Assembly (NCBI GenBank): GCA_964561935.1
Contig: CAZLQX010000002.1
Span: 119,930 to 183,929, forward strand
Reading direction: 5' to 3'
Length of the DNA: 64,000 nt
Source of the DNA: an uncultured Holophagales bacterium
Lineage (GTDB): Bacteria > Acidobacteriota > Thermoanaerobaculia > UBA5066
Positions within the stretch are counted from its first letter, which is position 1; every line of letters begins with the position of its first letter. Shown here one piece after another: positions 9,719 through 57,460 of the stretch. The position numbers and the translations under genes were made by a program. Under the pieces are notes generated by a model. It worked only from the letters and a program-made list of their open reading frames with translations. It was not told the origin of the DNA and made no database searches.

Positions 9719-10645
9719 GTGGAGGCGCCTCGGCCGGAGTCCGCCCCGAGCGAGTTTTTCCTCCGCGACTTGCCTCTGTTCCTCGACCACCTGGCCGTCG
9801 AGAAGGGGCTCGCGGAGAATTCCCTCGCGGCCTATCGGCGGGACCTCGGGGCTTTCGGGCGGCACCTCGACGCGGAGGGCCTCTCAGCGGCGGACGTCGC
9901 CCGAGAGGACCTCGTCCGGTGGTTCGGGCTCCGGCGGTCGCAGGGAGCCTCGCCCCGCTCCCTCGCGCGCGCGACGTCGGCGCTCCGCGGCCTCTTCCGG
10001 TTCCTGTTCGCCGAGAAGAGGGTCCCCTCCGACCCGACCTCCGGCCTCGAGAACCCGCGCCGCTGGACGACCCTGCCGAAGCTCCTCTCCCGCGCGGACG
10101 TCGAGGCGCTCCTCTCGGCGCCCGACGTCGAGACGCCCCGGGGCCTTCGCGACAAGGCGATGCTCGAGCTCCTCTACGCCTGCGGCGTGCGGGTCTCGGA
10201 GCTCGCGTCCCTGCGGCTCTCGTCGCTCCACCTCGCCGACGGATTCCTCGTCGTGAAGGGGAAGGGTTCGAAAGAACGCGTCGTCCCCGTCGCGGACTCC
10301 TCCGCACGGTGGGTCGCGCGGTGGATCTCGGGCCCACGCGCCGCGAAGGCGGAGGCGATCGCTTCGCCGTTCGTCTTCCCGGGACTCCGGGGGCGCCCCG
10401 TCACCCGGCAGACCGTCTTTCTCGCGCTGAAGGGGGCCGCCCGAAAGGCCGGCCTCGACCCCGAGGCGGTCTCGCCGCACGTCCTGCGTCACTCCTTCGC
10501 GACGCACCTCGTCGACGGCGACGCGGACCTCCGCGCCGTGCAGATGATGCTCGGACACGCGAGCATCGCCACGACGGAGGTCTATACCCACGTCTCCCGC
10601 GCCCGCGCCCGCCGCGTCTACGACCGGAGCCATCCGCGTGCGTAG
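9719..10645 (+). CDS. xerD: Site-specific tyrosine recombinase XerD
   Basis: VEKGLAENSLAAYRRDL, RDKAMLELLYACGVRVSEL, KGKGSKERVVP, SPHVLRHSFATHL..DADLRAVQMMLGHASIATTEVYTHV (R-H-R-H-Y catalytic residues intact). Confidence 0.9.
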   Translation: MEAPRPESAPSEFFLRDLPLFLDHLAVEKGLAENSLAAYRRDLGAFGRHLDAEGLSAADVAREDLVRWFGLRRSQGASPRSLARATSALRGLFRFLFAEKRVPSDPTSGLENPRRWTTLPKLLSRADVEALLSAPDVETPRGLRDKAMLELLYACGVRVSELASLRLSSLHLADGFLVVKGKGSKERVVPVADSSARWVARWISGPRAAKAEAIASPFVFPGLRGRPVTRQTVFLALKGAARKAGLDPEAVSPHVLRHSFATHLVDGDADLRAVQMMLGHASIATTEVYTHVSRARARRVYDRSHPRA

Positions 10646-14155: not shown

Positions 14156-17100
14156 ATGCCCTCCGACTTCGTCCACCTCCACCTTCACACGCAATACTCC
14201 CTCCTCGACGGCGCGAACCGGACGAAGGACCTCATCCGGCACGTCAAGGCCCAGGGCATGGACTCCGTGGCCGTCACCGACCACGGGAACATGTTCGGGG
14301 CGTTCGAGATCCAGACGGAGGCGCTGGACGCGGGTCTCAAGCCGATCCTCGGGGTCGAGGCCTACATCGCCCCCGGCTCGCGGCACGACCGAGAGGCCGT
14401 GAAGACGGTCGACGGCGAGGGGAACAGCTACCACCTCACCCTGCTCGCCGAGAGCCCGGAGGGGTATCGCAACCTCTCCTACCTCGTCTCCGAGGCCTTC
14501 CTGAGCGGTTTCTACTACAAACCCCGGATGGACTGGGAGCTGCTCGAGAAGCACCACGAGGGGCTCATCGCCCTCTCCGGCTGCGTCAAGTCCGAGGTCT
14601 CCCAGCGCCTCCTCGCCGGCGACTTCGCGGGCGCGAAGCAGACGGCGCTGAAGTACCAGGCGCTCTTCGGGAAGGACCGCTACTACATCGAGCTGATGGA
14701 CCACGGTCTCCCGATCCAGCGACAGCTCATGCCGGACCTCCTCCGCCTCTCGCGGGAGACGGGCATCCCGGTCGTCGCGACGAACGACGCGCACTACCTG
14801 CGGCGGGTCGACGCCGAGGCGCAGGACGTCCTCCTCTGCATCGGGATGGGGAAGACCGTCCAGGACGCCAAGCGGATGAAGTTCTACAACTCGGAGTTCT
14901 TCGTGAAGAACCCCGGGGAGATGCGCGAAGCGTTCCTGGAGTGGTCCCTCGAGGCCGTGAAGAACTCGGCGGCCGTCGCGGACCGCGTCGCGCCGAAGGT
15001 CATCCTCGACACGGGCTACAAGATCCCGACGTTCCCGCTCCCCGAGGAGGCCGGCGGGCCCGACGAGTACCTCGCGGAGCTCGCCCGTGCGGGTCTCGAA
15101 GCGCGCCTCGCGCCCATCGCCGCTCTCCTCGCCGCCGGCCGGACGAAGCACCCCAGGAAAGACTACGACGAACGGCTCGAGTGGGAGCTCGGCGTCATCC
15201 GGAAGCTGGGGTTCTCGGCCTACTTCCTGATCGTCTGGGACTTCATCAAGTACGCGAAGGACAACGGCATCCCCGTCGGCCCGGGGCGGGGGAGCGCCGC
15301 CGGCTCGCTCGTGGCGTGGACGCTCGGGATCACGGACGTCGACCCGCTCCGCTACGACCTCCTCTTCGAGCGGTTCCTGAACCCCGACCGGGTCTCGATG
15401 CCCGACATCGACGTCGACCTCTGCGAGCGCCGCCGGGGTGAGGTCATCGAGTACGTCCGGCACAAGTACGGACGGGAGAACGTCGGCCAGATCATCACGT
15501 TCAACTCGATGAAGGCCCGCGCCGTGATCCGCGACGTCGGGCGGGCGCTCGACGTCCCCCTCGCGGAGGTGAACAAGCTCTGTTCGATGATCCCGGCGAA
15601 CCCGGGAAAGCCGACGACGCTCGCCGACGCCCGGAAGGGCGTGAAGGAGCTCGCGGACACGCTCGAGGGGAACGAGGGCTACCGGCGGCTCTTCGACCTC
15701 GCCGAGCGGCTCGAGGGAGTCTCGCGGCACGCGGGCGTCCACGCGGCCGGCGTCCTCATCGCACCGCGTCCGCTCGTCGAGTACCTGCCGCTCTACAAGA
15801 ACAACAACGACGAGATCACGACGCAGTTCGAGATGAAGTCCGTGGAGAAGATGAAGCTCCTCAAGATGGACTTCCTCGGGCTCATCACGCTCACGATCCT
15901 CGACGACGCGGTCCGCTCCGCGGAGAAGAGGACGGGGAGGCGAGTCGACCTGTCGGCGATCCCGCTGAACGACCCGGAGGTCTTCCGCCTCTTCTCCGAG
16001 GGACGGACGGACGGGATCTTCCAGTTCGAGTCGTCGGGGATGCGGGACCTCCTGCGACGTGTCCAGCCGAGCGTCTTCAGCGACCTCGCCGCGCTGAACG
16101 CCCTCTACCGCCCGGGCGCGCTCGACGCCGGGACCGTCGAGGTCTACATCGAGCGGCGCCGCGGTAAGAAATTCGACTACCCGCTTCCGCAGCTCGAGGA
16201 GATCCTGAAGGACACCTACGGGGTCCTCGTCTACCAGGAGCAGGTCATGCTCGCGGCCCGAGCCGTCGCGGGGTACACCCCGGGCGAGGCGGACCTCCTC
16301 CGGAAGGCGATCGGCAAGAAGGACGAGAACGCCCTGAAGGCCGAGGGCGAGAAGTTCATCAGGAAGGCCGTCGCGAGCGGGGTGCCCCGGAAGAAGGCTG
16401 AGGAGCTCTGGGAGCTGATCCTCCCGTTCGGCCGCTACGGCTTCAACAAGTCGCACTCGGTCGTCTACGCGCTCCTGGCCTACCGCACGGCGTGGATGAA
16501 GGTCCACTACCCGGTCGACTTCATGGCCGCCACGCTCACGGCCGCCTCGGGGAAGTCCGAGGACGTCGTCAAGTACGTGAACGCTTGCCGGGAGATGAAG
16601 ATCCCGGTCCTCCCGCCCGACGTGAACTCCTCGCAGCTCTCGTTCGCCCCGGACGGGGAGGCGATCCGCTTCGGGCTCGGCGCCGTGAAGGGCGTCGGCG
16701 AGGGGGCGGTGAACTCCGTCCTCGAGGCGCGCGCCGCCGACGGCCCGTTCGCGTCCCTCACGGACTTCTGCTGCCGCGTCGACGTGAGGCTGAACAACCG
16801 GAAGGTCGTCGAGGCGCTCATCCGTTCCGGCTCGTTCGACGCGCTCGGGAAGTCGAGGGCCGCCCTCGCCGCGGGCGTCGACTCCGCGATGGAGGTCGCC
16901 GTCGCGGAGAGGAAGTCGAGGGAGTCGGGCCAGGGGGGGCTCTTCGCCGACGAGGCGGCCTCCGATCACGCGGACCGTTTCCCGGACCTTGCGGAGTGGT
17001 CGCCCGACGAGAGGATCCGGTACGAGAAGGAGACCCTCGGCTTCTACATCACCGGGCATCCGCTCGCGCGCTTCGAGGAAGAGATCGGGCTCTTCGGCGA

Positions 17101-17695
17101 CGTCACCGCGGAGCGCGCCGCCGAGCGGGTCGACCAGAGCGTGAAGATCGTCGCCCTCCTCGCATCGCTCAAGAAGACGCAGATCAAGAAGGGGCAGAAC
17201 GAGGGGAAGATGATGGCGAAGGGGGTCCTCGAGGACCTCACGGGGTCGGTTCCCGTCACGATCTTCGCCTCGCTCCTGGAGCGCGTCGGCTCGTGGCTCG
17301 CCGAGGGACAGCCCGTTCTCGTGACCGGCGTCGTCCGCTCCTCGGCGTCGCCGGGGAGTCCTGAGCCGGAAGCCGAGGGCGCCCCCGTCCCCGTCGAGAT
17401 CATCGCCCGCGAGATTCAGCCCCTCGAGGGGATGCGGGAGGCCTCCGCGACGGGGGTCCGACTGCTGACGCCCGTTCCGGGGACGCTCGACGAGACGCTC
17501 GCGTCCGTGAGGGAGGTCCTCGAGTCTTCTCCCGGCTCCGTTCCCGTCTCGCTCGAGGTCCGTCGGGCCGGGCATTGGGAGGTCCGGGTCCGCGCCGCGG
17601 GCCGGCTCGCCGTCCGTCCGACGCCGGAGCTCACGCGCGGCCTGGAGCGCCTCCTCGGGCCGGGCTCCGTCCGGTACGACTACTCCCGTTCGTGA
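14156..17695 (+). CDS. dnaE: DNA polymerase III alpha subunit
   Basis: PHP FVHLHLHTQYSLLDGA, TDHGNMFG, VATNDAHY, GPGRGSAAGS, FERFLNPDRVSMPDIDVD, HAAGV, KMDFLGL, YGFNKSHS, OB-fold C-terminus. Confidence 0.98.
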   Translation: MPSDFVHLHLHTQYSLLDGANRTKDLIRHVKAQGMDSVAVTDHGNMFGAFEIQTEALDAGLKPILGVEAYIAPGSRHDREAVKTVDGEGNSYHLTLLAESPEGYRNLSYLVSEAFLSGFYYKPRMDWELLEKHHEGLIALSGCVKSEVSQRLLAGDFAGAKQTALKYQALFGKDRYYIELMDHGLPIQRQLMPDLLRLSRETGIPVVATNDAHYLRRVDAEAQDVLLCIGMGKTVQDAKRMKFYNSEFFVKNPGEMREAFLEWSLEAVKNSAAVADRVAPKVILDTGYKIPTFPLPEEAGGPDEYLAELARAGLEARLAPIAALLAAGRTKHPRKDYDERLEWELGVIRKLGFSAYFLIVWDFIKYAKDNGIPVGPGRGSAAGSLVAWTLGITDVDPLRYDLLFERFLNPDRVSMPDIDVDLCERRRGEVIEYVRHKYGRENVGQIITFNSMKARAVIRDVGRALDVPLAEVNKLCSMIPANPGKPTTLADARKGVKELADTLEGNEGYRRLFDLAERLEGVSRHAGVHAAGVLIAPRPLVEYLPLYKNNNDEITTQFEMKSVEKMKLLKMDFLGLITLTILDDAVRSAEKRTGRRVDLSAIPLNDPEVFRLFSEGRTDGIFQFESSGMRDLLRRVQPSVFSDLAALNALYRPGALDAGTVEVYIERRRGKKFDYPLPQLEEILKDTYGVLVYQEQVMLAARAVAGYTPGEADLLRKAIGKKDENALKAEGEKFIRKAVASGVPRKKAEELWELILPFGRYGFNKSHSVVYALLAYRTAWMKVHYPVDFMAATLTAASGKSEDVVKYVNACREMKIPVLPPDVNSSQLSFAPDGEAIRFGLGAVKGVGEGAVNSVLEARAADGPFASLTDFCCRVDVRLNNRKVVEALIRSGSFDALGKSRAALAAGVDSAMEVAVAERKSRESGQGGLFADEAASDHADRFPDLAEWSPDERIRYEKETLGFYITGHPLARFEEEIGLFGDVTAERAAERVDQSVKIVALLASLKKTQIKKGQNEGKMMAKGVLEDLTGSVPVTIFASLLERVGSWLAEGQPVLVTGVVRSSASPGSPEPEAEGAPVPVEIIAREIQPLEGMREASATGVRLLTPVPGTLDETLASVREVLESSPGSVPVSLEVRRAGHWEVRVRAAGRLAVRPTPELTRGLERLLGPGSVRYDYSRS

Positions 17696-19292: not shown

Positions 19293-19840
19293 TCCGCGTC
19301 GTCGCCGGCGAGCTTCGCGGGCGACGCCTCGCCGTCGGCCCCGGCGTGAGGCCGACGACCGAGAGGGCCCGCGAGGCGCTCTTCAGCATCCTCGGGGAGC
19401 GCGTCCGGGACGCGAGGATCCTCGACGCGGCGGCCGGCTCCGGGGCGCTCGGGTTCGAAGCCCTCTCCCGGGGAGCGCGGGAAGCGGTCTTCGTGGAGGC
19501 CGACCGTCGCGTCGGACGCGTCCTCGCCGCGAACGTCGAGGCGGCCGGCCTCGGGAGCCGCGCGCGGGTCGTCGCGCGGACCGTCGCAGCCTACCTCGTC
19601 GCGGAGCGGCCCTCGGGCTTCGACGTCGTCTTCTTCGACCCGCCCTGGGCCGACCCGGTCGCCGCGGAGCTCGACGGCCTCTGGAACGCTCTCGGACCGG
19701 GAGGGACCTTCGTCGTGGAGAGAGGGACGGGGGACGCCCCCTGGCCCGGCGCACCCTGGGCCCCGGACGCCCGCCGCTACGGGACGACGCATCTCTTCCT
19801 CTGGTCGCGGCCCGGTCCCGCCTCCCGGTCCGGTCGTTGA
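19289..19840 (+). CDS. rsmD: 16S rRNA (guanine966-N2)-methyltransferase
   Basis: [57 protein letters not shown]. Confidence 0.9.
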
Positions 19841-19914
19841 CCGGCCTCGACGGCGTCGATAGAGTCTCCGGCTCGACGCTCCTGCGAAGGGGGCGGTCCG
19901 GGGGAGACCGAGAC

Positions 19915-21081
19915 ATGGCGCTCTTGCGAACTCTCTTCACGTCCGAGTCGGTCACCGAGGGGCACCCCGACAAGATCGCCGACCAGATCTCCGACGGGAT
20001 CCTGGACGCGATCCTCTCCGACGACCCGGAGGGCCGGGTCGCCTGCGAGACGCTCGTCACGACGGGGACGGCGTTCATCGCCGGCGAGATCACGACGAGG
20101 ACGTATGTCGACATCCCGCAGGTCGTGCGCGACACGATCCGCGACGTCGGATATACGCGCGCCAAGTACGGGTTCGACTATCAGACCTGCGCCGTCCTCA
20201 CCTCGATCGACAAGCAGTCCCCCGACATCGCTCAGGGCGTCGACCCGGGCGGAGCCGGCGACCAGGGCCTCATGTTCGGCTTCGCCGTCCGCGAGACGGA
20301 GGAGCTGATGCCGCTCCCGATCACGCTCGCGCACCGCCTCACGATGCGCCTCGCCGAGGTGCGGAAGTCACACGAGCTGGAGTGGCTCCGGCCCGACGGG
20401 AAGAGCCAGGTCACGGTGGAGTACGAGGGGAGCCGTCCCGTACGAGTCGACGCGGTCGTCGTGTCGACCCAGCACGCCGAGACCGTGCCGACGCTCGAGC
20501 TCCGCGAGGCGATCCGGGAGGAGGTCATCCGGAGAGTCGTGCCCGCGGCGCTCCTCGACGAGAAGACGAAGCTCCACATCAACCCGACGGGGCGTTTCGT
20601 GATCGGCGGGCCTCAAGGGGACACGGGACTGACGGGGCGGAAGATCATCGTCGACACCTACGGGGGGATGGGCCGGCACGGCGGGGGAGCCTTCTCCGGG
20701 AAGGACCCGACGAAGGTCGACCGGTCGGCCTCGTACATGGCCCGCTACATCGCGAAGAACCTCGTCGCAGCCGGTCTCGCCGATCGCGTGGAGGTCCAGC
20801 TCGCCTACGCGATCGGCGTGGCGGACCCGGTCTCCGTGTACGTGGATACTTTCGGCACCGGGACGGTCGATCCGGAGCTCCTTCCCGCGCTCGTGAGGGA
20901 CCACTTTCGCCTCACCCCGAGAGGGATCATCGAAGCGCTGGACCTACGGCGTCCGATCTACAGGAAGACGGCCTCCTACGGGCACTTCGGACGACGCCTC
21001 CCGGAATTCACCTGGGAGCGGACGGACCTGGCCGAGGCGCTGGCGGGAGCGGCCGGTCTCGGCGCGCCGCCGCCCGGCTGA
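19915..21081 (+). CDS. metK: S-adenosylmethionine synthetase
   Basis: [84 protein letters not shown]. Confidence 0.98.
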
Positions 21082-21090
21082 CTGCGGCGC

Positions 21091-23406
21091 TCAGGTCCTC
21101 ACGCCGAGGAGGCCCCAGGCGGCGCACAGGCCGAAGAAGAGGTTCGCGCCCCACGCCGCGACGAGAGGGGGGAGCGAGCCGGACTCTCCCGCCTTCACGA
21201 GGGCCGCCCCGAGTATGAGGTAGACGAGGCCGAGAAGGAGGGCAATGCCGATCCCGGCAACGGCGCCCTTCCTGCCGTACCGGAACGAAAAGGGGAGTCC
21301 GACGAGAGTCAGGAGGAGCGGCGCGAGGACGATTGCGCTCTTCTGGTAGAGGCCCGTCGCGATCGCCGAAACGTCGGCGCCGGCTTTCCGGCGGGCCCTC
21401 ACGAACCGGGCAAGCTCGAGGCTGTCCATCTGGCGCGGGTCCGCCCGTCCGGCGAGGAAGGTCCGCGAAGCCTCGGGAGCCTCGAGGAACGTCGTCCCCG
21501 CCTGACGCAGGAAGAGGGACCCGCCGTCGCGGTCGAAGGTCCGGGTCCAGCCGTCGGCCAGGAGGATTCCGCGGCCCGGCACGACCCGCCCCCCGGCTCC
21601 GCGAGACTTCCGGAGGAGCCGGAACGTCTCCGGCTCCAGCTGAAGGACCGTGATGCCCGTGACGGACGACGTGCGGGGGTCCCAGGTTTCGGCCGAGAAG
21701 AAACGGCCGGACTCGCCGCGGAGGAACGAGCGCCAGGAGTCGGACGAGACGGCCGGAGGCTTGCCGACGAGGATCTTCTTCAGCCGCTCCGCTTCGGCTG
21801 CGGATCGGGGGACGACCCGCTCGGCGAAGACGAAGGCGGACGCACCCGTGACGACGGCCAGGACGAGGATGGACGCAGTCGCACGGAACAGGGAGACGCC
21901 GTTCGCGAGGAGCGCGGTCGTCTCGGCGGATCGGACGAGGCTTGCCACGGCGATGAGGGCGGCCGCCGAGAATGCGAGCGGGACCACGTCGACGAGGATC
22001 GGCGCGAGCTTCGCCTGGAAGTAGCCGAGGACCGCGGTGAGAGGGGGAGCGACCCTGGCGATCTCGTCCGAGATCTCCAGGTACTCGAAGAGAACGTAGA
22101 GGAGGAGGACGGAGAGGAGGACCAGGGCGAAGAGCCAGAGGAACCGTCGAGCCACGTAGCGATCCACGAGGCCCGCCCGGAGAGAAGCCGAGGAGCGCCG
22201 GGAGCGACGCACGACCGGGCGGTCCGCGGCGGCCGCACGCGGGCTGAGGCGGGCGGCGAATTCCGCGAGGGGCCGGGGGAGCTGTCCCTCGAAGACGGTC
22301 CGGTCTCGCCGGACCCTCGAGACCCCCCAGGCGCCGAGCGCGAGAAGGAGGAAGTTCGGAAGCCACATCGCGAGCCACGGGGACATCGTCCCTTTGAGGA
22401 CGCGGGCCTCGCCCGACGCGTAGAGGACGTAGTAACCGAGGACGATCGCCGTCGAGACCGCGAATCCCGCGGCGCGGCCACCGCGCCGGTTCACGACGCC
22501 CAGGGGCAGGCCGACGAGCCCGAAAACGAGGCAGGCAGCGGGGAAGGAGAACTTCTTGTGGACCTCGACCCACGACAGACGCGCGAGGGTCTCGTTGGGG
22601 GTCGTCCGAGCCCGGGCCACGAGCTCGGAAAGGGTCATCTCTCGTAACTGTTTGTCGGGTCGTGTCTTGGCGAATCTCTCCCGGGGATTCGTGTCATCGA
22701 GTAGGACTCTCTGCGTGCGATAGCTGGCACGGTCGTAGCCTCGCGCATCGCTCGTCGTATGGTGGGTGATCGCATCCTCGAGCCGAAGCCAGAGCCTTCC
22801 TTCCGTTTCCTCAAGCTCCAGCGCACCGCGGCGGGCAATCGTGATCCTCTCACCGTCCTCCGGGTTCGAGCTGTCGACGACGATGAGCCCTTCGAGGGTC
22901 TTCCGGTCGGTGGAAGCCCGTTCCACGTAGACCCTGCGCCCGGCCAGCTCCGGACTGAAGACTCCCGGCTGAATTCGCTGGGCGATCACGAACGTCGACA
23001 GCTGCAGCTTCATCCCGTACAGGATCCGGTTCGTCCGCGGGACGACCCAGGTCATGACGAGGCCCGTTGCGAGGGCGAGCACCGCGGCCAGGACTGAAAT
23101 CGGCCGGAACAGGGAGAGGAGGTCGACGCCGGCCGCGCGGAGGGCCACGAGCTCCGAGTCCTGGCTGAGGCGGCCAACGCCGACCAGGATTCCGAGCAGG
23201 AAGGCAATCGGAAGCGTGAGGACGACGATGTGGGGGGCCGAGAAGGCCAGGACCCGCACCGCGTCGAGGAGCGGTTGACGGCTCTGGACGAGCAGGTCGC
23301 TGAACTGCACGAGGCCGCGAATGAGCATGAAGCCCGTGTAGATTGCGAAAGCGACCGCCGTCGGAGCGAGGATTTCCCAAAATGCGTAGCGATCGGTCAG
23401 CTTCAT
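21091..23406 (-). CDS. Fused LptF-LptG LPS export permease (two YjgP/YjgQ repeats)
   Basis: First repeat: GRLSQDSELVALRAAG, EVHKKFSFPAACLVFGLVGLPLG, AMWLPN. Second repeat: LVDRYVARRFL, LVRSAETTALLANGVS, LVGLPFSF, PPLVAAWGAN. Confidence 0.88.
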   Translation of the reverse strand: MKLTDRYAFWEILAPTAVAFAIYTGFMLIRGLVQFSDLLVQSRQPLLDAVRVLAFSAPHIVVLTLPIAFLLGILVGVGRLSQDSELVALRAAGVDLLSLFRPISVLAAVLALATGLVMTWVVPRTNRILYGMKLQLSTFVIAQRIQPGVFSPELAGRRVYVERASTDRKTLEGLIVVDSSNPEDGERITIARRGALELEETEGRLWLRLEDAITHHTTSDARGYDRASYRTQRVLLDDTNPRERFAKTRPDKQLREMTLSELVARARTTPNETLARLSWVEVHKKFSFPAACLVFGLVGLPLGVVNRRGGRAAGFAVSTAIVLGYYVLYASGEARVLKGTMSPWLAMWLPNFLLLALGAWGVSRVRRDRTVFEGQLPRPLAEFAARLSPRAAAADRPVVRRSRRSSASLRAGLVDRYVARRFLWLFALVLLSVLLLYVLFEYLEISDEIARVAPPLTAVLGYFQAKLAPILVDVVPLAFSAAALIAVASLVRSAETTALLANGVSLFRATASILVLAVVTGASAFVFAERVVPRSAAEAERLKKILVGKPPAVSSDSWRSFLRGESGRFFSAETWDPRTSSVTGITVLQLEPETFRLLRKSRGAGGRVVPGRGILLADGWTRTFDRDGGSLFLRQAGTTFLEAPEASRTFLAGRADPRQMDSLELARFVRARRKAGADVSAIATGLYQKSAIVLAPLLLTLVGLPFSFRYGRKGAVAGIGIALLLGLVYLILGAALVKAGESGSLPPLVAAWGANLFFGLCAAWGLLGVRT

Positions 23407-23478: not shown

Positions 23479-23506
23479 ACGTCCTATAAGAAATATTATG
23501 TTAAAT
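23479..23506 (+). other. dif: Chromosome dimer resolution site dif (XerC arm / 6-bp spacer / XerD arm)
   Basis: ACGTCCTATAA-GAAATA-TTATGTTAAAT. XerD arm is identical to E. coli dif (TTATGTTAAAT). XerC arm ends in the conserved ATAA and resembles B. subtilis ACTTCCTAGAA. Intergenic, single copy seen, only strongly AT-rich patch in the window. Confidence 0.9.
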
Positions 23507-23748
23507 ATCATCATCTCGCAGCCATATAGAATTCGGAAACGGCAATCCGGAAGGGGTCGGTTCCTCGTCTGCGCCGCTGCGCGACCTCACTCTGCGTCTG
23601 CACCGCGTCCGGCAAACGGTCCCAGGTCAAGCGGAGCGAGCCCTGGCCTGCGACGTTCAGGAAACCGCGGACGGCTCGTCGTTCGCGACCCCGAGGCGGC
23701 CGGCGCGCTGCCCGTGGCATTGGGCGTTCGCGGCCGGCCTCTCTCGAT

Positions 23749-24699
23749 CTAGAGATCAGGCTCTTCGGCCGAGCTTTCCGACTCGGCACCGGCCTTTCGG
23801 GACTTCGCAGTCCCTGGCTTCAGGAACCGGCCGTGCTCCTCGAGGTCGAGTTCCCCTGCGCCGATCCTCCGGACAAGCTCCCGCAGCGTCTGCAGGATTT
23901 CGGCCCGATCCGCGGTCGCACCCCTGAAGACGAGGCTCACGGCGTACTGCGACTCCGGAGGCTGGAAGTTGAGCTCGTACGCTTTCCTCAGGCTTCGGAA
24001 ACGGGCGCCCTCGGCATCAGGGACGCCTTCCTTTCGCACCGAGCGAACCGAGTCGCGACCGATCCCTTCTCCAGATTCGAAAGCGGCGATCGCCTCCAGC
24101 ATCGCCGGCTCGTTGGGGAGTCGCCCGACCTCGAGCAGGAACGACTTGGAGCGAATGTCGGCGCGCCGACATTCGTCCTTCACCCTGAGCGGAAGGCGAG
24201 AAAGCGAGAGCGTCTCGGTGACGGTGACTCTCGACTTCCCCACGGCCTTGGCGATCTGCTCGTGGGTATAGCCGTGACGGTCTTGCAGCGTCAGGTACCC
24301 GTCCGCTTCTTCCAGCGGACTCAGGTCCTTTCGCTGAAGGTTCTCGATGAGGGCGATTTCGACGACCTCGGCGTCGTTCACGTCCAGCACGATGCACGGA
24401 ACGTCGGCGAGGCCGGCCTCCATCGCGGCGCGAAAGCGGCGCTCACCGGAGATGATCGTGAAACGGCCCCCTTCGCGCGGTCGGACGAGGATAGGCTCGA
24501 GCACTCCCTTCGCTTCGATCGATGCCTTCAGGTCGGCAAGGTCCCCGAGGATGCTTCGAGGCTGATCCGGGTTCGCCTCGATCAGATTGAGCGCAATCCT
24601 CCGGCCGATCGAGATCTCCTCGCCGCGGAAGAGCTGGTCGACAAAGTGTGGATCGTGGCGCATTCGGGAAGTCTCGGGGAGACCACGGCGCTTAGACAC
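23749..24699 (-). CDS. parB: ParB/Spo0J-family protein (CTPase + HTH + C-terminal domain)
   Basis: IEANPDQPR, SIEAKGVLEPILVR, ISGERRFRAA (GxxRxxA), ALIENLQRKDLSPLEEA, HTH THEQIAKAVGKSR; overlaps parA stop. Confidence 0.92.
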   Translation of the reverse strand: MSKRRGLPETSRMRHDPHFVDQLFRGEEISIGRRIALNLIEANPDQPRSILGDLADLKASIEAKGVLEPILVRPREGGRFTIISGERRFRAAMEAGLADVPCIVLDVNDAEVVEIALIENLQRKDLSPLEEADGYLTLQDRHGYTHEQIAKAVGKSRVTVTETLSLSRLPLRVKDECRRADIRSKSFLLEVGRLPNEPAMLEAIAAFESGEGIGRDSVRSVRKEGVPDAEGARFRSLRKAYELNFQPPESQYAVSLVFRGATADRAEILQTLRELVRRIGAGELDLEEHGRFLKPGTAKSRKAGAESESSAEEPDL

Positions 24700-25447
24700 G
24701 TTCGAGGATCTCCTCGGTCAGGCTGTAGTACTCGGAGGCGGCCGTTGAACGCGGAGCGAAGGTGAAAATCGACTCCTTGTAGGCCGGGGACTCCTCGAGT
24801 CGAACCGACTTCGAGACCGTCGTCCTGAAGAGCTTGCCCTGGAACACGGTGTCGATCTGCTTCTGGATGTCGCGGCCGAGGACGGTTCGCTTGTCGTGCA
24901 GGGTGATGACGACGCCGAGGATCTGAAGAGAAGGATTCGGCCGGCTCTTGATCTTCTCGATCGTCTCGAGGAGGTCGTCCGTTCCCTCGAGCGCGAAATA
25001 CGAGGACTGGATTGGAATGATGATGTGGCTCGACGCGACCATCGCGTTCACCGTGATCATCCCGAGGGTCGGCGGCGTGTCTATGAGGATGGCGTCGTAC
25101 GACCCGGAGACCTCCCCCATCTTGTCCTTGAGCCGATAGTGCCCGTCGATCTCGCCGATGAGCTTCGACTCGACTTTCGCGAGCGAGATCTTCGCGGGCG
25201 CGACCGAGAGACCTGGGACGTTGGTCTCGCGGACGACCGAGGAAACGGTGACGTCGGGGTCGACGAGGACGTCGTACATCGATGCGCCGATCGTCCGCCG
25301 GTCGAGATAGGACATCGTCGAGTTGGCCTGCGGGTCGAGGTCGACGAGGAGTGTGCGGAGGTTCTTCTGGGCGAGTGCGGCGGCGACGTTGATGGCCGTC
25401 GTCGTCTTGCCCACGCCGCCCTTCTGGTTGGTGATCGCGATGATCAT
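24692..25447 (-). CDS. parA: ParA/Soj-family ATPase
   Basis: Deviant Walker A NQKGGVGKTTTAIN, LVDLDPQANST, ILIDTPPTLG, VNAMVAS, IPIQSSYFALEG, RLEESP. Confidence 0.93.
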   Translation of the reverse strand: MIIAITNQKGGVGKTTTAINVAAALAQKNLRTLLVDLDPQANSTMSYLDRRTIGASMYDVLVDPDVTVSSVVRETNVPGLSVAPAKISLAKVESKLIGEIDGHYRLKDKMGEVSGSYDAILIDTPPTLGMITVNAMVASSHIIIPIQSSYFALEGTDDLLETIEKIKSRPNPSLQILGVVITLHDKRTVLGRDIQKQIDTVFQGKLFRTTVSKSVRLEESPAYKESIFTFAPRSTAASEYYSLTEEILERV

Positions 25448-25564: not shown

Positions 25565-26050
25565 TTACATCTTGTACTTGCCGAGCGACTCCGGGTCCGC
25601 CTGTTCAAGCCACTTCCGGAGCCGTTCGTGGTTCTGCGCCTCTGCGGAGTCGTCCTGGCTCCGGCTCTTCTCGAGGACGTCCTCCTCGACGAATAGAGGT
25701 GCGGATGTTCGCAGGGCGAGTGCGATCGCGTCCGACGGTCGGCTGTCGACGACGAGGGACCGTTCGCCGGCGAGGAGATGGAGCTCGGCGTGGAAGGTGT
25801 TCTCCTGGAGCTTCGTGATGACGACCCTCTCCACCGATCCCCCAAGCGAGACGATCGTCTCCTTCAGGAGGTCGTGAGTCATGGGGCGCGGAGTCCGGAC
25901 TCCCTCGAGCTGCAAGGCGATCGCGTTCGCCTCGAAGACGCCCACCCAGATCGGAAGGAAGTTCCGATCCTCGGCGTCGCGCAGGACGACGACGGGCATA
26001 TTGGCGATCGGATCGACGATCAGCGCCTTGACCTCCATTCTCAGCCTCAC
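25565..26050 (-). CDS. Bifunctional nuclease family protein (DUF151/BFN)
   Basis: PVVVLRD, FLPIWVGVFEANAIA, PRPMTHDLL, ENTFHAEL, DSRPSDAIALALRT; GGAGG SD before GTG. Confidence 0.9.
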   Translation of the reverse strand: MRLRMEVKALIVDPIANMPVVVLRDAEDRNFLPIWVGVFEANAIALQLEGVRTPRPMTHDLLKETIVSLGGSVERVVITKLQENTFHAELHLLAGERSLVVDSRPSDAIALALRTSAPLFVEEDVLEKSRSQDDSAEAQNHERLRKWLEQADPESLGKYKM

Positions 26051-26096: not shown

Positions 26097-27503
26097 TCAA
26101 GCCGGGGTGCCCGATTCCCCGTCGGCAGGCCGGGAGACTTCCGTCCGGAGAGGACGGGCGAGGAGCGAATTCGCGAGACCGCGTTCGACGATCACCCGTA
26201 CGAAGGTCCCCGGGGGCGCCCCGGGAATCCCGTCGACATTCACGAGACGGTTGTCGGGCGATCGCCCGGAGACCCGGCTCCCCTTCTTGTCCCGTCCTTC
26301 GACGAGGACCTCGAGAACCTGCCCGACGAGGGCCTGGTTCGCCTGCAGCTGGATGCGCTGCTGGTGGTCGTTCAGGCGCGCCAGTCGCTCCTGCGCGACG
26401 GGAAGGGGAACGTCGAGCTGCCAGCGTGCGGCCGCGGTGCCGGGTCGCGGCGAGTACGTGAACGAGAAGACGGCAGCGAACCCGACCTCGTCGAGGAGCG
26501 ACAGAGTGGCCTCGAAGTCCTCCTCGGTCTCCCCCGGGAAGCCGACGATGATGTCCGTCGAGAGCGCGATGCCGGGGATGGCGGCACGGAGTCGCCGGAC
26601 GAGCGCGAGGTACTCCCCGCGCGAGTACTGGCGCTTCATCCGCCCGAGGATCCGGTCGCTCCCGGACTGGAACGGAAGGTGGAGCGCCGGGCATACGGCA
26701 GGGCTCTCGGCCATCGCGGCGACGAGATCGTCACCGAAATTCATCGGATGAGACGTCACGAATCGGAGGCGGCGGAGTCCCGAGAGGCCGGCGACCGCGC
26801 GGAGGAGCGCCGCGAAGCCCGCACCGGTCGTCGGGTCCGAGTACGCGTTCACCGTCTGCCCGAGGAGCTCGATCTCGACGACCCCTTGCGCGACGAGGCC
26901 GCGGCACTCCTCGACGACCTCCTCGAAGCGACGGCTTCTTTCGCGCCCGCGGGTCGTCGGGACGACGCAGAACGTGCAGTGCTTGTTGCACCCTTCGATG
27001 ACGGTTGCGGAGGCCCGGTGCGGAACGCTCCTCGCGACGGCGCCCGGGGTGTACGCCACCTCGTCGAGGTCGAAGGCGATCTCCACGGGTCGGTCGCCTT
27101 CCTCCCGGACTCTCCGGACGACCGCCGGGAGGAGCTCGATCCGACCCGTGCCGAGGACGAAGTCGACGGCGGGAGAGCGACGGAGTATCTCTTCGCCCTC
27201 CTGCTGCGCGACGCAGCCGCAGACCCCGAGCAGGAGGTCGGGCCGACCACGCTTGCGCACGGCGATCCGTCCGAGGTAGTCGTAGACCTTCTGCTCCGCC
27301 TTGTCGCGCACGGAGCACGTGTTCAGGAGAACGAGGTCTGCGTCGTCGACGGACGACGCTTCCAGATAACCCTCTCGAGCCATCAGGCCGACGAACCTCC
27401 GGCTGTCGAGCTCGTTCATCTGACAGCCCCAGGTCTCGACGAAGACCTTCCTGCCCTGGAGAGGTGCGCTCTCTCTGTTCGGCGCCGGCGCCGGGGTCCG
27501 CAT
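26097..27503 (-). CDS. miaB: tRNA-2-methylthio-N6-dimethylallyladenosine synthase
   Basis: TWGCQMNELDS, LNTCSVRDKAEQK, GVCGCVAQQEG, radical SAM EGCNKHCTFCVVP, HLPFQSGSDRIL, STDIIVGFPGETEEDF, TRAM domain. Confidence 0.95.
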   Translation of the reverse strand: MRTPAPAPNRESAPLQGRKVFVETWGCQMNELDSRRFVGLMAREGYLEASSVDDADLVLLNTCSVRDKAEQKVYDYLGRIAVRKRGRPDLLLGVCGCVAQQEGEEILRRSPAVDFVLGTGRIELLPAVVRRVREEGDRPVEIAFDLDEVAYTPGAVARSVPHRASATVIEGCNKHCTFCVVPTTRGRERSRRFEEVVEECRGLVAQGVVEIELLGQTVNAYSDPTTGAGFAALLRAVAGLSGLRRLRFVTSHPMNFGDDLVAAMAESPAVCPALHLPFQSGSDRILGRMKRQYSRGEYLALVRRLRAAIPGIALSTDIIVGFPGETEEDFEATLSLLDEVGFAAVFSFTYSPRPGTAAARWQLDVPLPVAQERLARLNDHQQRIQLQANQALVGQVLEVLVEGRDKKGSRVSGRSPDNRLVNVDGIPGAPPGTFVRVIVERGLANSLLARPLRTEVSRPADGESGTPA

Positions 27504-28177
27504 CAGCGGAGCCATCCGGGCGGCGCGCCGCTCTTGCGGGCCTCCTCCTCCAGATCGTCGAGCGCCTTGCCCGCGGCCGTCGCCTCGGCCTCGAGGCTCT
27601 TCACTCGCTCGCGGGCCTGGTCCCAGGCGGGCCGAATGACCCGCTCGCGGTAGTTACCGTCGCTCCATGCATAGAAGTCGTTCTCGAGGCGACGAGCCTC
27701 GGCCCGGGCCGTCTCGACGGCCGTCTTCGCCTCCTCGGCGCGCGCCCTCGCCGTCGCCGCCCTGTCCCGCCAGTCGGACTCCGTACGTCCGCTCCCGTCC
27801 CTGTAGTCGGCGACGGGGGCCGGAGTCGCTATGGCCCCAGCGGCGGTTTTCGGGGCGGTACCGGTGATCGTGATCGAGGGTCCCGAAGTCGATCGCTCCG
27901 TGCGGAGGAGGGACTCGTTGGTGATCACGATCCCCCCGCGCCTGGGCTCGTCCCGGCCCGAAGCGCTTTCTTGCGTCTTTCTTACGATGTCGGCAAGGGA
28001 GCCGCCGCCCGGCCCCGCGGCGGGCGTTGGAGACGTCGGGACCCCGAAACTCCCCCCACCCAGCTTCCGCGCCGTCTTCGGACGAGGGGTTGGCGTGGGC
28101 TTCGGGTCTTCGGCCCGCAGGGCGAACGCGGCGATCAGGACGGACGCGGCCAGAGGGAGCGCACGCGTTCTGCTCAT
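27503..28177 (-). CDS. Hypothetical secreted protein with Pro/Thr-rich linker and C-terminal coiled coil
   Basis: Signal peptide MSRTRALPLAASVLIAAFALRA; 'IVITNESL' segment; ESDWRDRA..coiled coil..LEEEARKSGAPPGWLR; 4-nt and 1-nt overlaps with neighbours. Confidence 0.7.
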   Translation of the reverse strand: MSRTRALPLAASVLIAAFALRAEDPKPTPTPRPKTARKLGGGSFGVPTSPTPAAGPGGGSLADIVRKTQESASGRDEPRRGGIVITNESLLRTERSTSGPSITITGTAPKTAAGAIATPAPVADYRDGSGRTESDWRDRAATARARAEEAKTAVETARAEARRLENDFYAWSDGNYRERVIRPAWDQARERVKSLEAEATAAGKALDDLEEEARKSGAPPGWLR

Positions 28178-35933: not shown

Positions 35934-37936
35934 GTCCCCTCCGGCCGGAGGACTCCCTGGCTCGGGATCCCCGGTCCCGTCTCCACGTCGACCCGTCCGC
36001 TCCCCCTCTGGAAGGTGAGGAGCGCTCCGGTCATCCGGTTCCCCTTGCCGTCGAGCGCCGTCGCGGGTTTCCCCTCCAGGGTGATCACCTCGGTCTGCGG
36101 CTTCCAGGTCGCCTTCGCGCCCTCGCCGCGTCGCCCGTCCGCGCGGTCCTCGACGACGACGTTCCCGCGAGCCTCGGCGTGGTCCACCGTCCGCTCCGGG
36201 CCGAGGACGACGTCCGTCACGTCGGCCTTCATCACCCAGGTGCCGGAGACGACGCTCGATGAGCCCTCGATCCTCAGGAGCCGCGCCGCCTCCCGATGCG
36301 TCAGGACGGCGCCCGTCGCCGTGACCGTCTCAACGGTCGAGGCCTTCGACTTCGGGTCGACCCTTCGCCTCCGGAGGACCGCCCGGACTTGTCCCTCGGC
36401 GCGGAGCGAGCGATCCCTGTCGTCGAGGAGAAGCGAATTCGCGCGGACCACGTTCTCCTCCTGCCACGCCGTCACGTTTCCGGTGAGCAGGATGGTCCGT
36501 TCCGGCGGGACGACCCGCAGGAAGTCGGACTCCGAGAAGATCGGCGCCTCGGAGCCACCGCCGAGGACCTCGGATCCCTCGCGCCCGCGGAAGGTGGTCT
36601 TCACCGTTCCGACACCCTCGATCCGCTCGTCGCGCCGGAACCAGGTCAGGACGTTCGCGGAGACCCGGGAGCGATCGTCTTCGTAGCGGGCGGGCTCGAT
36701 CTCGGTCCCGGCGAAGACGACCGATTCCTCGGTCCCGCGGAGCGTGGCGCGGGGGGCCCGGACCGTCGTCGTCCCTTCCGAGAGGGAGACGCCTCCCTCG
36801 AGGACTGCCGCCTCGAGGGTCCGCCCGTCCGGACCGAACGTGAGCTGGCCGCTCCCCGCCGCGAGGAGCCTCGCGGCGGGAGCCCTCGTCGCGCCGGGCC
36901 GCGGCGTCGAGGCCGACTCGGCGAGCGTGAACGCGCCGGGGACCTGGATGCGGACGAGCCGGCTTTCGGCGAGCGTCGCCTCGAAGCCGTCGGCGATCGC
37001 CCGTCGTGCGCCCGTCCCCTCCTCGGGCGGAATGTCGAGGAAGGCCGGGCTCCCCGAGAGCGAGAGCCGCCCGGGCTCGCCCGCCGCGTTTCGCAGAAGG
37101 TCGAGGATCTCCCCCCGTGCGCCGACCGGGACTCCGATCTCCGCTCCGGGGGCCGGCAGGAGGAGCGCCTCGACGCGCCCCCGCGCCGCGAGACGGTCTC
37201 CGCCCCCGACGATCTCGCGTTCCAGCTCGTCCCCGCGGACGAGGAGCTCTTCGGTCGTCAGGACGACGGCCCCGCGAGCCACGAGACCTCCACCCCGCCG
37301 GAGATCCACCTCGCGCGCCGCGAGGGAGATGCGCCGCCCGCGAGAATCGACGCCGCCGACGCGCACGTCCTCCCGGAACCGGACGATGCCCGCGGTCGTC
37401 TCGACCGAGCCGCCCCTCGCCGAGGCGACGAGGCGCCCGGCCTCGGCCGCGACCGGGCCTTCGGAGACGAGGGTTCGCGAGCCGGGGTCGTAGCGGAAGG
37501 AGACTGACCGGACGCCGAGGCCGCTCCCTTCGACCCGGACGCCGTCGAAGACGCGGAACGCCTTCGTCGCGGGGACGAACTCCGCTCGGGGCGCCTCGAG
37601 GACCGCGGCCCGCCCGCTCCCCGCGTCCTGCGTCCGGAACGTGACGTCCTTCAGCCGGAAGGTCCGATCGGCGCCCTCCGCGAAGGCGATCGCCTCCGCC
37701 GCGCGCAGCCGGTAGACCTCGCGGTCCCCTTCGCTCTCCGAGTAGTCGAACTCCTCGAAGCGGAGGCGGTCGCGCACGCCTTCCGCCTCGCGGAGGAGCG
37801 TCGCGGCGATCTCCTCCCGGGCCTCCTCCGTCCTCGCGCCCGATGGCCGGTAAAGGACGGCGAGGAAGAGCGGGAACCCTCCGCAGGCGAGCACCGCGAG
37901 GGCGGTCCGCAGTGTCCGGCGCGTCCCGCCCGTCAC
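35930..37936 (-). CDS. Long LptC/LptA(OstA)-like beta-jellyroll LPS transport protein with N-terminal membrane anchor
   Basis: 3' part of ORF 35930..39538. TM helix [18 protein letters not shown], LptC-like [15 protein letters not shown]..., C-terminal OstA-like LTGNVTAWQ and [17 protein letters not shown]; directly upstream of lptB. Confidence 0.75.
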
Positions 37937-39693
37937 GCCGCGTCCCTCCGGACGGCGTCGAGGACCGTCAGGACCGGGCGGCCGATCCAGGCGTCGTGGG
38001 CGAGGTTCGCGAAGACGTCCCATCGTCCCCGCCGCTCCGCCGAGGGAATCCTCGCGAGCGACCAGCCGACGGCGTCGAGTCGAGCCCCGTCGCCCTCGAA
38101 GGCGAGCCGGAGCCCGCGCTCGCCGACGGGCCGGGCGCGGCCGTCCCACTCGAGGGCGCGCAGCAGGAAGAGTGGCCGCGGGTTCCCCTGACCGTGGGGC
38201 TCGAGCCTCCCGAGCGCGGCGACGAGCTGCGGGGTCACCTCGGACGGCGACAACTCTGCATCCGCCTCGAAGACGACGCTCCACTCCGACTCGTCGCGCG
38301 CGGAGGAGAAGGCCGTCCGGGCGTCCTCCCGAAACGCCTCGTATCCCTCCTGGGGCACCGAGAGGCCGATCGCGGCGCGGTGTCCCCCGAACTCCGCGCC
38401 GTGCCGGCGCGCGACGGGCGCGATCCTCTCGTGGAGCGGCGTCCGACCCCAGGTCCGGCCGCTCCCGCCGACGCGGCCACCCTCGCGCGCGAGGAGAAGG
38501 ACGGGCCGGCAGACCTCCTGCGCGACCTTCGCGGCGGCGATGCCGAGGACGCCGCGATGCCAGCCTTCCGCCGGGTCCCCTGCCTCGACGACGAGGGAGT
38601 CCGCCGCGGGGTCGAACGTCCTCTCGAGCCTCGAGAGAGCCGCGGCGACGACGCGTTCCTGCATTCGCCGGCGCTCCGTGTTCGTCGCCTCGATCTCGTC
38701 GGCCAGGACGTTCGCCCGATCGACGTCGCCGGTCGTCAGGAGCTCGAGGGCGCGCTGGGCATGGTCGACGCGGCCCGCGGCGTTCAGCCGGGGGGCGATC
38801 CGGAAGGCGACGTCGTGGACGGAAGGGCTCTTCCCCGCCCGGACCGAGGCGCGCGCGAGGAGCGCGGCGAGACCCGGTGAGCGCGGCCCGGCCAAGCCCG
38901 AGAGGCCCCATGCCGCGAGAACCCGGTTCTCGCCGGTGAGAGGGACCATGTCGGCGATCGTCGAGAGTGCCGCGACCTTCGCGAGCGAGGCCATCCAGCT
39001 CTGGACGAGGTCGGTCCCGAGGCCGGCCCTCTCTCTCTCCGCCTCGAGGAGGGCCTGCGAGAGCTTCCACGCGAGTCCGGCGCCGGCAAGCTCCTTGAAG
39101 GGGTAGGGACAGCCGGGGAGCTTCGGGTTCAGGAGGACCGCCCCTTCGGGCAGCTCCTCCGACGGGAGATGGTGATCCGTGACGACGACGAAGACGCCGC
39201 GCGCAACCGCCTCCCGGATCGGCGCGACGGCGGTGATCCCGCAGTCGACCGTGACGACCCCCTCCGGGGCGTGCTCGTCGAGTGCCCGCCGGAGCGTCTC
39301 CGACCGGAGACCGTAGCCGTCTCGGAGACGATGGGGGATGAACGGTACGGCGTCCGCGCCGAGCCGCTTCAGGGTGGTCGTGAGGATCGCGAGGGCGCCG
39401 ATTCCGTCGCAGTCGTAGTCGCCGAAGACGACGACCCGGCCGCCGCGTCTCGCGGCGGCGGCGAGGAGCGCGACCGCCTCCCTCATCCCGCCCATGCCGA
39501 GCGGGTCGTGGAGCGCCGCGGGTCCCGGCTCGAGCCACATCCGCGCCTCGTCGGGCGTGAGTACGCCGCGAGCGGCGAGGACGCGCGCGAGCGGCGCCGG
39601 GATGGCGAGCTCCCGCGCGAGGCGCGTCGCGGCCTTCGCGTCGTGAGGCCGGACGGAGCGCGCGGCGGTCGGAAGCGGGAAGACCGGGCTCAC
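37933..39693 (-). CDS. recJ: Single-stranded-DNA-specific exonuclease RecJ
   Basis: VFGDYDCDG, IPHRLRDGYGL, VTVDCG, VTDHH, YPFKELAGAG, IADMVPLTGENR, IAPRLNAAGR, WHRGVLGI, FGGHRAAIG, EPHGQGNPRP. Confidence 0.93.
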   Translation of the reverse strand: MSPVFPLPTAARSVRPHDAKAATRLARELAIPAPLARVLAARGVLTPDEARMWLEPGPAALHDPLGMGGMREAVALLAAAARRGGRVVVFGDYDCDGIGALAILTTTLKRLGADAVPFIPHRLRDGYGLRSETLRRALDEHAPEGVVTVDCGITAVAPIREAVARGVFVVVTDHHLPSEELPEGAVLLNPKLPGCPYPFKELAGAGLAWKLSQALLEAERERAGLGTDLVQSWMASLAKVAALSTIADMVPLTGENRVLAAWGLSGLAGPRSPGLAALLARASVRAGKSPSVHDVAFRIAPRLNAAGRVDHAQRALELLTTGDVDRANVLADEIEATNTERRRMQERVVAAALSRLERTFDPAADSLVVEAGDPAEGWHRGVLGIAAAKVAQEVCRPVLLLAREGGRVGGSGRTWGRTPLHERIAPVARRHGAEFGGHRAAIGLSVPQEGYEAFREDARTAFSSARDESEWSVVFEADAELSPSEVTPQLVAALGRLEPHGQGNPRPLFLLRALEWDGRARPVGERGLRLAFEGDGARLDAVGWSLARIPSAERRGRWDVFANLAHDAWIGRPVLTVLDAVRRDAA

Positions 39694-40652: not shown

Positions 40653-40686
40653 TCCCGGAATGTACCAGACCGCGCCGCTTCGGCCG

Positions 40687-43098: not shown

Positions 43099-43102
43099 CG
43101 CC

Positions 43103-57456: not shown

Positions 57457-57460
57457 CGTC

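Follow-up and report, generated by a model that had tools for sequence, protein, structure and literature searches.

A conserved parAB operon with a variant candidate parS lies beside the dif site in Acidobacteriota

Chromosomal ParABS systems are treated as markers of the replication origin, and the position of parS sets both the locus that is segregated first and the site at which SMC is loaded. In almost every bacterium studied, parS and parAB are found close to the origin (review PMC7333895). Here we describe a parAB operon in a 64-kb stretch of contig CAZLQX010000002.1 from an uncultured Holophagales bacterium (the whole stretch analysed; hereafter, the window), which lies beside a dif site and has a candidate parS of non-canonical sequence inside parB (Table 1). 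With the Soj-Spo0J systems of B. subtilis and T. thermophilus and the ParAB systems of C. crescentus and M. xanthus, the operon shares the parA-parB gene order, the deviant Walker A motif of ParA and the parts of ParB, i.e., an N-terminal basic peptide, a GERRxRA/ENLQR CTP-binding domain, a helix-turn-helix (HTH) and, as predicted here, a C-terminal domain. Both also have, within the operon or beside it, a 16-bp palindrome of 7-2-7 geometry with TGT...ACA at its ends. Its proteins mark the locus as a chromosomal ParABS, and it departs from known systems in the sequence of its candidate parS, with a matching recognition helix, and in its genomic position. The site reads TGTCGGC-NN-GCCGACA, with an interior different from that of the canonical parS (TGTTTCA-CG-TGAAACA), and the operon abuts dif at a point of convergent transcription rather than, as far as its context indicates, lying near oriC, dnaA or gidAB.

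Other described systems resemble the locus in part. Noc and its binding sites (NBS) in Firmicutes likewise pair a ParB fold with an HTH that has diverged for a different palindrome, and over the N-terminal and HTH parts the score against the Noc model is similar; here, in contrast, there is a cognate ParA, and whereas Noc sites occur chromosome-wide and avoid the terminus, the palindrome adjoins dif. MatP/matS of E. coli and ZapT of Caulobacter offer a possible functional analogy, as DNA-binding proteins that mark the dif-proximal region, but their folds are unrelated, those systems lack an ATPase motor, and no link to the divisome is seen at this locus. A recombinase gene near its own dif is also found for XerS/difSL in streptococci and XerH/difH in Helicobacter and Campylobacter; those are single-recombinase systems with an atypical dif, whereas the site described here is of the classical 11-6-11 XerC/XerD type, with parB as the gene that is kept beside it. 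In B. subtilis, XerD acting at XDS unloads SMC at the terminus, which links ParB (the SMC loader), XerD and the terminus. The loader and unloader sites of B. subtilis are at opposite ends of the chromosome, whereas the candidate loading site and the XerD site are ~670 bp apart in the window. ParAB2/parS2 of V. cholerae and the systems of Burkholderia chromosomes 2 and 3 likewise have a ParB with its own parS variant, but these are found at secondary origins, whereas the locus reported here lies amid core genes (dnaE, rpoN, miaB, lptFG).

The dif site is located 242 bp past the parB stop codon. It is a 28-bp intergenic sequence with 11-6-11 architecture, a conserved TTATGTTAAAT-like XerD arm and an ATAA/TTAT inner palindrome, and it is conserved at the orthologous position in relatives. 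We take its XerD arm to be identical to that of E. coli dif. No second dif-like site was detected in the window with up to 3 mismatches allowed, and 0/100 shuffled sequences matched. In an alignment of 8 relatives, the 28-mer is the sole conserved block of the spacer between parB and lptFG. The window dif belongs to the same sequence family as two sites that Kono et al. predicted, in Koribacter (ATGTCCGATAACAGATATTATGTTAACT) and in Solibacter (ACTTCCGATAACGAATATTATGTCAACT); the Solibacter site is 0.47 degrees off the GC-skew shift point of that genome (PMC3025954 supplement).

Species-representative genomes of a genome collection were scanned with an alignment of the ParB family, which gave the 80 best loci (cited below by L numbers). 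They span Thermoanaerobaculia, Vicinamibacteria, Holophagales, Blastocatellia, Terriglobia and related groups. Homologues of the window ParB number in the thousands; the best 120 share 62–100% identity with it, and the named ones among them are from Thermoanaerobaculia or Acidobacteria. Two more homologue searches, with ParB profiles of Holophagales-type and Terriglobia-type sequences, yielded solely proteins from metagenomes or metagenome assemblies. Based on tblastn of the window proteins, the block miaB-BFN-parA-parB is present in essentially all 80 loci and in every class sampled. The gene order of the window is also found on a 2.30-Mb contig (ParB identity 85%) and a 1.27-Mb contig (62%), both of which read rpoN-hpf-hprK-rapZ-EIIA-HPr-ptsI-cupin-hypothetical-miaB-BFN-parA-parB-spacer-lptFG, followed by convergent genes from metK to dnaE, and the spacer between parB and lptFG contains dif in both.

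A position weight matrix was trained on first-pass dif sites (consensus AGTTAACATAA-TATATC-TTATCGGACGT) and applied to the 78 evaluable non-redundant loci. It placed dif within 1.2 kb of the parB stop codon in 43/78 (median 124 bp, range 21–1110) and elsewhere within 10 kb in another 6, for a total of 49/78 loci with a match. The same parB-dif adjacency was detected on an 8.38-Mb contig. Across loci, dif was in the + orientation in 35 cases and in the - orientation in 13. As judged from gene order and predicted sites, the comparison shows that the parAB-dif pairing, whose synteny across Acidobacteriota had been set as a check in an earlier note on this DNA, is kept across much of the phylum and in several classes. 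The full Acidobacteriota-type locus, with complete synteny, was also present in seven metagenome-assembled genomes with unexpected labels (L013, L025, L027, L038, L040, L052 and L063; labelled Acidithiobacillales, Heliomicrobium/Heliobacteriaceae, Acidimicrobiia or Polyangiaceae), which are probably mislabelled or contaminated bins.

A recombinase gene is part of this neighbourhood. The product of the xerD-like gene in the window scored 348.8 bits against the NCBIfam model PRK00283, above its cut-off, and 326 bits against the XerD model, slightly below the cut-off of 329.6; neither a second Xer recombinase nor ftsK was detected within the 64 kb. Across the related loci, xerD is 2–13 kb from dif, or straight after parB in some classes. 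The order in Vicinamibacterales is parB-dif-lptFG-metK-xerD, and in the Blastocatellia-type loci without a detected dif, xerD is often immediately downstream of parB. Loci with xerD in the neighbourhood include L025, L034, L035, L039, L040, L042, L045 and L046, as well as L050, L052, L053, L056, L063, L066, L072 and L078. The recombinase gene thus accompanies parAB throughout the phylum. We regard the conservation of this parAB-dif(-xerD) neighbourhood as genuine, and it was not expected.

The candidate parS is a perfect 24-bp palindrome, CGAATGTCGGCGCGCCGACATTCG, that spans codons 175–183 of parB (DECRRADIR), with its core TGTCGGC-NN-GCCGACA at 24156–24171. It is the longest perfect palindrome of the window, where it occurs once, and no counterpart was found in shuffled sequences. 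Related loci totalling 1.35 Mb contain the exact 16-bp core 75 times, versus 0 in Markov simulations. All non-redundant orthologues whose ParB reads C-R-x-A-D (48/48) encode this stretch with the codons TGT-CGG-CNN-GCC-GAC. Elsewhere in these genes, TGT accounts for 14% of Cys codons, CGG for 24% of Arg, GCC for 39% of Ala, and GAC for 69% of Asp. The two central bases of the palindrome are free (CGC, CTG, CAT, CAG or CGT) and the encoded residue follows them (R, L, H or Q). Orthologues without the C-R-x-A-D motif mostly use TGC, and where ParB has unrelated residues at this position (e.g., TVQALGI), the palindrome is located 80–190 bp upstream of parA instead. The frozen codons in 48/48 genes and the relocation of the palindrome upstream of parA show that selection acts on the DNA itself and not on the protein alone. 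Some Blastocatellia loci have up to four copies across 15 kb around parAB. In one of them (L062, on a 516-kb contig), exact palindromes at 4269, 7013, 10526 and 18811 are distributed over 15 kb around recN-miaB-BFN-parA-parB, resembling a classical multi-site centromere; neither dif nor an origin gene was detected within 10 kb of that locus.

A search of the window for the canonical parS (TGTTNCACGTGAAACA) with up to 3 mismatches gave no match, and the related loci contain none beyond a few scattered 2-mismatch matches. In place of the canonical site expected in or near a chromosomal parAB operon, the locus thus has a different palindrome, which we consider very probably to be the parS of this family and phylum. 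The recognition helix differs accordingly in sequence. The corresponding region reads GK(A/E/S)RS(T/H)VAN(A/T)(L/M)RLLxLP in T. thermophilus, M. xanthus and C. crescentus and GKSRVTVTETLSLSRLP in the window, so that canonical ...VANxLRLL... becomes ...VTETLSLS..., with E and S replacing N and R. The intragenic palindrome and the altered helix are additions beyond the earlier note. The parS variant is solid and is new relative to the literature searched, in which the palindrome sequence, parAB-dif linkage and parS in Acidobacteriota were not found. Other long perfect palindromes in the window are TCACGCTCCGGAGCGTGA (18 bp, 47453–47470) and CGCCGCGGCCGGCCGCGGCG (20 bp, 57165–57184, inside scpB).

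parA and parB are both intact and overlap by 8 nt, an arrangement that shows them, at the level of sequence, to be translationally coupled. In 16 orthologues the N-terminus of ParB (MSKRRGLPE) is conserved right from its first amino acid, which confirms the GTG start and the overlap. Residues 8–17 of the parA translation are NQKGGVGKTT, and the protein matched AAA_31 (2.8e-56, 190.7 bits) and CbiA (1.1e-24) in Pfam. Its best relatives in PDB are ParA 8ray (1.1e-50) and T. thermophilus Soj 1wcv (1.1e-47), followed by H. pylori Soj (1e-47); it has the KGGxGK[ST] motif of a type Ia ParA and belongs to the Soj/MinD superfamily. The parB product matched ParB_N (4.4e-27) and HTH_ParB (4.5e-14), scored 144.8 bits against TIGR00180 (cut-off 58.45), and carries the CTP-binding motifs GERRFRA and ENLQRKD; both the ParB_N CTP-binding motif and the ParB HTH of chromosomal ParABS are therefore present. 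Its best sequence and fold relatives in PDB and Foldseek searches are T. thermophilus Spo0J, M. xanthus ParB and C. crescentus ParB (Foldseek, 1e-14 for the latter two). The AlphaFold2 model, with a mean predicted local distance difference test (pLDDT) score of 67, comprises an N-terminal domain and an HTH, and residues 239–280 form a C-terminal beta-beta-alpha unit, where pLDDT is just 60–73. Residues 210–316 are outside any Pfam match and are conserved within the family. The model and motifs together show a full-length ParB, with an N-terminal basic peptide, a GERRFRA/ENLQR CTP-binding domain, an HTH and a predicted C-terminal beta-beta-alpha unit.

The earlier note had described an intact, overlapping parAB pair with these motifs about 240 bp from dif, and its coordinates and description hold (242 bp; Pfam and TIGR00180). 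It had also reported a core-gene setting without flanking mobile elements, in agreement with the Pfam, dif and tRNA scans of the window, where no tRNA, transposase or phage gene was detected. Its suggestion of a Noc-like or MipZ-like role is not supported. ParB scored 145.1 bits against the Noc model TIGR04285 (cut-off 315) and its gene is overlapped by a cognate parA; ParA scored 49.6 bits against PF09140 over residues 2–153 only, versus 190.7 bits against AAA_31, and its best structural matches are Soj/ParA.

To our knowledge, dif sites function solely in the terminus region. In the window, ten + strand genes (9.7–21.1 kb) converge on ~33 - strand genes (21.1–64 kb) at 2.4 kb from dif, and the same convergence of transcription is found in relatives. 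The DnaA box TTWTNCACA does not occur in the 64 kb, and motifs of DnaA, RsmG (gidB), MnmG (gidA) and RpmH were detected neither in the window nor in 85 related loci. Based on this context, i.e., dif, the convergence, the lack of DnaA boxes and origin genes, and the published Acidobacteria dif predictions, the locus is likely placed at the terminus. The terminus location assumed in the earlier note is thus supported by the convergence and by the missing DnaA box and origin motifs, and not by GC skew, which failed its controls (see below).

We propose that the locus is the Acidobacteriota form of chromosomal ParABS, sited at the dif of the chromosome instead of at the origin, and we assign this reading a probability of roughly 0.55. 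The palindrome would act as parS and be read by the altered recognition helix VTETLSLS. Once loaded at this site, ParB-CTP clamps would slide for several kilobases, and dif, at a distance of ~670 bp, would therefore be covered. ParA would then move or position the ParB-coated region. On this view it is the dif/terminus region that would be actively partitioned or positioned and that would hold any point of ParB-dependent SMC loading, and XerCD at dif would work inside the ParB domain or bound its edge. In terms of geometry, and speculatively, the terminus may be the sole non-origin site from which bidirectional loop extrusion could still align both chromosome arms. A stronger form of this proposal, which we regard as tentative and somewhat doubtful, is that in a large part of Acidobacteriota the sole chromosomal centromere is at the terminus, in parB a few hundred bases from dif, where ParABS would partition or position the terminus/dif region, any ParB-loaded SMC would start, and ParB spreading would be coupled to dimer resolution by XerCD/FtsK.

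Several observations weigh against the proposal. ParB binding to the palindrome, spreading over dif and coupling to Xer are steps that we infer. The linkage to dif is not universal; dif was not detected within 10 kb at 29/78 loci, most of which are from Blastocatellia, Terriglobia and, in part, Vicinamibacteria, and generic scans with ATAA-N6-TTAT and TTTAACA for a divergent dif in Blastocatellia-type loci revealed nothing consistent. A subgroup in which ParB reads C-R-E-A-G (L021, L030, L033, L036, L051, L058, L073 and L079), including the only complete chromosome sampled (OY970380.1), has no exact TGTCGGC-NN-GCCGACA within 10 kb, and the same is true of Terriglobia-type loci (L026, L027 and L057). 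In four loci of the C-R-E-A-G subgroup, dif is ~3 kb from parB, a distance that could accommodate inserted DNA. Finally, the evidence covers the window and the related loci and contigs, including long contigs of 2.3, 3.2, 4.5, 5.9 and 8.4 Mb that give coordinates for parB but none for the origin.

The compositional tests for a terminus did not withstand their controls. Raw GC skew was higher on the left, parAB, side than on the right in 25/30 loci, which is the +-to-- polarity of a terminus. However, four-fold-degenerate sites have the same slightly negative coding-sense skew in every gene, on any side or strand, so the raw signal is an effect of gene orientation and GC skew was rejected as proof of the terminus. 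The four-fold-site skew has no replication signal in high-GC lineages; a left-over-right difference in both gene orientations, when controlled for orientation, was detected in the lower-GC loci L039 and L055 only. The FtsK-orienting polar sequence (KOPS)-like motif GGGNAGGG points toward dif on both sides, even within lptFG, which is transcribed away from dif. Shuffling of synonymous codons gave 23.9 expected versus 24 observed motifs, so the polarity inside lptFG is fully accounted for by amino-acid and codon composition, and the motif was likewise discarded as terminus evidence. Some G-rich octamers selected from the data exceeded expectation; they were chosen from the same data in which they were counted, and the orthologues are non-independent.

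The principal alternatives concern what the adjacency of parAB and dif means. It is possible, though we do not favor it, that ParABS works here as elsewhere and that dif merely sits in a slowly rearranging block, so that the adjacency would have no function and the position of the centromere would be tolerated. The whole region rpoN-hpf-hprK-rapZ-PTS-miaB-BFN-parAB-lptFG-metK-dnaE is indeed syntenic, well beyond parB and dif, the adjacency is lost in the 29 loci mentioned above, and dif occurs in either orientation. Such passive synteny does not readily explain why a short spacer persists down to ~45% ParB identity when its sequence is otherwise unconserved, nor why xerD is often directly after parB where dif was undetected, a pattern that suggests a recurrent association of ParAB with Xer/dif. 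We consider it rather unlikely that the operon is an extra, terminus-dedicated pair, as the earlier note had supposed, with a separate canonical ParABS near oriC that segregates origins. The origin-proximal position of parS and parAB in nearly all studied bacteria (PMC7333895) would fit this, as would the diverged helix with its own site, which is frequent in secondary systems such as Noc and the ParB of second chromosomes. The locus is, however, a core synteny block in every class sampled, its proteins have primary chromosomal Soj and Spo0J/ParB as their closest solved relatives, and it has its own centromere-like site, all of which argue against a second paralogue pair. No second ParB-family match was detected on the same contig in the 80 best loci, by a scan that is blind to distant paralogues, and a canonical parS is missing from the window and, apart from the scattered 2-mismatch matches, from the related loci. 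The conserved vertical synteny, as far as it can be read from these contigs, favors the locus being the main chromosomal ParABS of the phylum.

The palindrome itself could be a transcriptional operator or the site of another factor, with the real ParB loading site elsewhere, possibly near oriC. Its position just upstream of parA in many lineages, as for an autoregulatory operator, its single copy in the window and its absence near parAB in the C-R-E-A-G subgroup are consistent with an operator, but the window site is 528 bp inside parB and ~1.3 kb downstream of the operon start, which is a poor position for one. A parS within the coding sequence is known from B. subtilis, where spo0J contains one. 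The palindrome also shares with parS its 7-2-7 layout and its TGT/ACA ends, and the multiple copies over 15 kb in Blastocatellia resemble centromere clusters; we therefore regard the operator as improbable. Elements that exploit Xer insert themselves at dif, in some cases with their own parA and parB, so the dif-like site could also be the attachment scar of an integrative element that brought parAB (cf. the gonococcal genetic island). GC content over parAB is 0.61–0.65, compared with ~0.70 (5–8 points lower), as such an origin might predict. Yet the GC content at third codon positions of parA (0.89) is host-like and the locus is syntenic in relatives, so the local dip does not indicate foreign DNA. 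Rather than two dif-like sites accompanied by mobility genes, the window has one such site, the neighbors include no integrase, phage or conjugation genes, and an insertion-free gene order is common to dozens of species across classes, which together make this origin scarcely credible.

If the Acidobacteriota form of ParABS is indeed sited at dif, the phylum-wide juxtaposition of parAB and its probable centromere with dif would provide a natural exception to origin-marking ParABS. It raises the questions of whether ParB coats dif, whether ParA and ParB act on the last-replicated locus, whether SMC is loaded at the terminus, and whether ParB cooperates with Xer/FtsK. A sole centromere at the terminus, if true, would invert the origin-centred organisation of all model bacteria. 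The candidate parS with its matching helix change is a new and easily testable case of a switch in ParB specificity, and the variant would account for centromeres that may go undetected in Acidobacteriota genomes when the canonical consensus is used as the query. The arrangement is known from metagenome-assembled genomes in classes that also include cultured relatives, i.e., Geothrix and Holophaga (Holophagae), Luteitalea and Vicinamibacter (Vicinamibacteria), and Thermoanaerobaculum, so these questions are experimentally approachable.

Table 1 Coordinates of the parAB-dif locus and neighboring features in the 64-kb window
Feature	Position	Strand	Description
parA	24692-25447	-	Soj-type ParA ATPase, 251 aa, deviant Walker A KGGVGKT; from open reading frame and translation
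parB	23749-24699	-	ParB/Spo0J-type CTPase clamp protein, 316 aa, GTG start, non-canonical recognition helix SRVTVTETLSLSRLP
Candidate parS (ParB loading site)	24152-24175	.	Perfect 24-bp palindrome CGAATGTCGGCGCGCCGACATTCG inside parB
dif, XerC/XerD dimer resolution site	23479-23506	+	ACGTCCTATAA (XerC arm)-GAAATA (centre)-TTATGTTAAAT (XerD arm), 28 bp
xerD-like tyrosine recombinase gene	9719-10645	+	308 aa, 12.8 kb from dif; Pfam Phage_integrase and Phage_int_SAM_1
Fused lptF-lptG permease gene	21091-23406	-	771 aa, two LptF_LptG stretches, Pfam 1.3e-134; on the other side of dif
metK	19837-21081	+	Stop codon faces that of lptFG (convergent transcription)
BFN-domain gene (bifunctional nuclease, PF02577)	25565-26050	-	Immediately upstream of parA; Pfam
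miaB	26097-27515	-	Heads the block miaB-BFN-parA-parB; Pfam
224-aa open reading frame	27503-28177	-	Between miaB and a cupin gene; no Pfam or NCBIfam match

Window genes were annotated with Pfam, plus NCBIfam models. From left to right, the + strand encodes the xerD-like recombinase, an SLT-domain protein, guaA, an RRM protein, dnaE, a CCA/polyA polymerase, rsmD and metK. The - strand genes then follow as lptFG, (dif), parB, parA, BFN, miaB, two small genes, ptsI, HPr, EIIA, rapZ, hprK, hpf, rpoN, lptB, recJ, accA, priA, coaBC, rpoZ and an ABC transporter, and continue with a HIT-domain gene, HU, rpsA, an aminotransferase, rluB, scpB, scpA, trpS, an M50 peptidase, recG and a cNMP/FHA protein at the right end. 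Scans for promoters, terminators, Rfam families and tRNAs around the locus gave nothing informative. The lptF-lptG fusion is kept in relatives (products of 767–805 aa), and the BFN-domain gene adjoins parA upstream in essentially every Acidobacteriota locus. Counterparts of the 224-aa open reading frame in the closest relatives encode 232–264 aa, also without a Pfam match. The window is rich in chromosome-maintenance genes (dnaE, recJ, priA, HU, scpB-scpA and recG; spans 14156–17695, 37933–43170, 51635–52009, 56548–58267 and 60471–62573), among which scpB-scpA, the kleisin partners of SMC, are 33 kb from the candidate parS.

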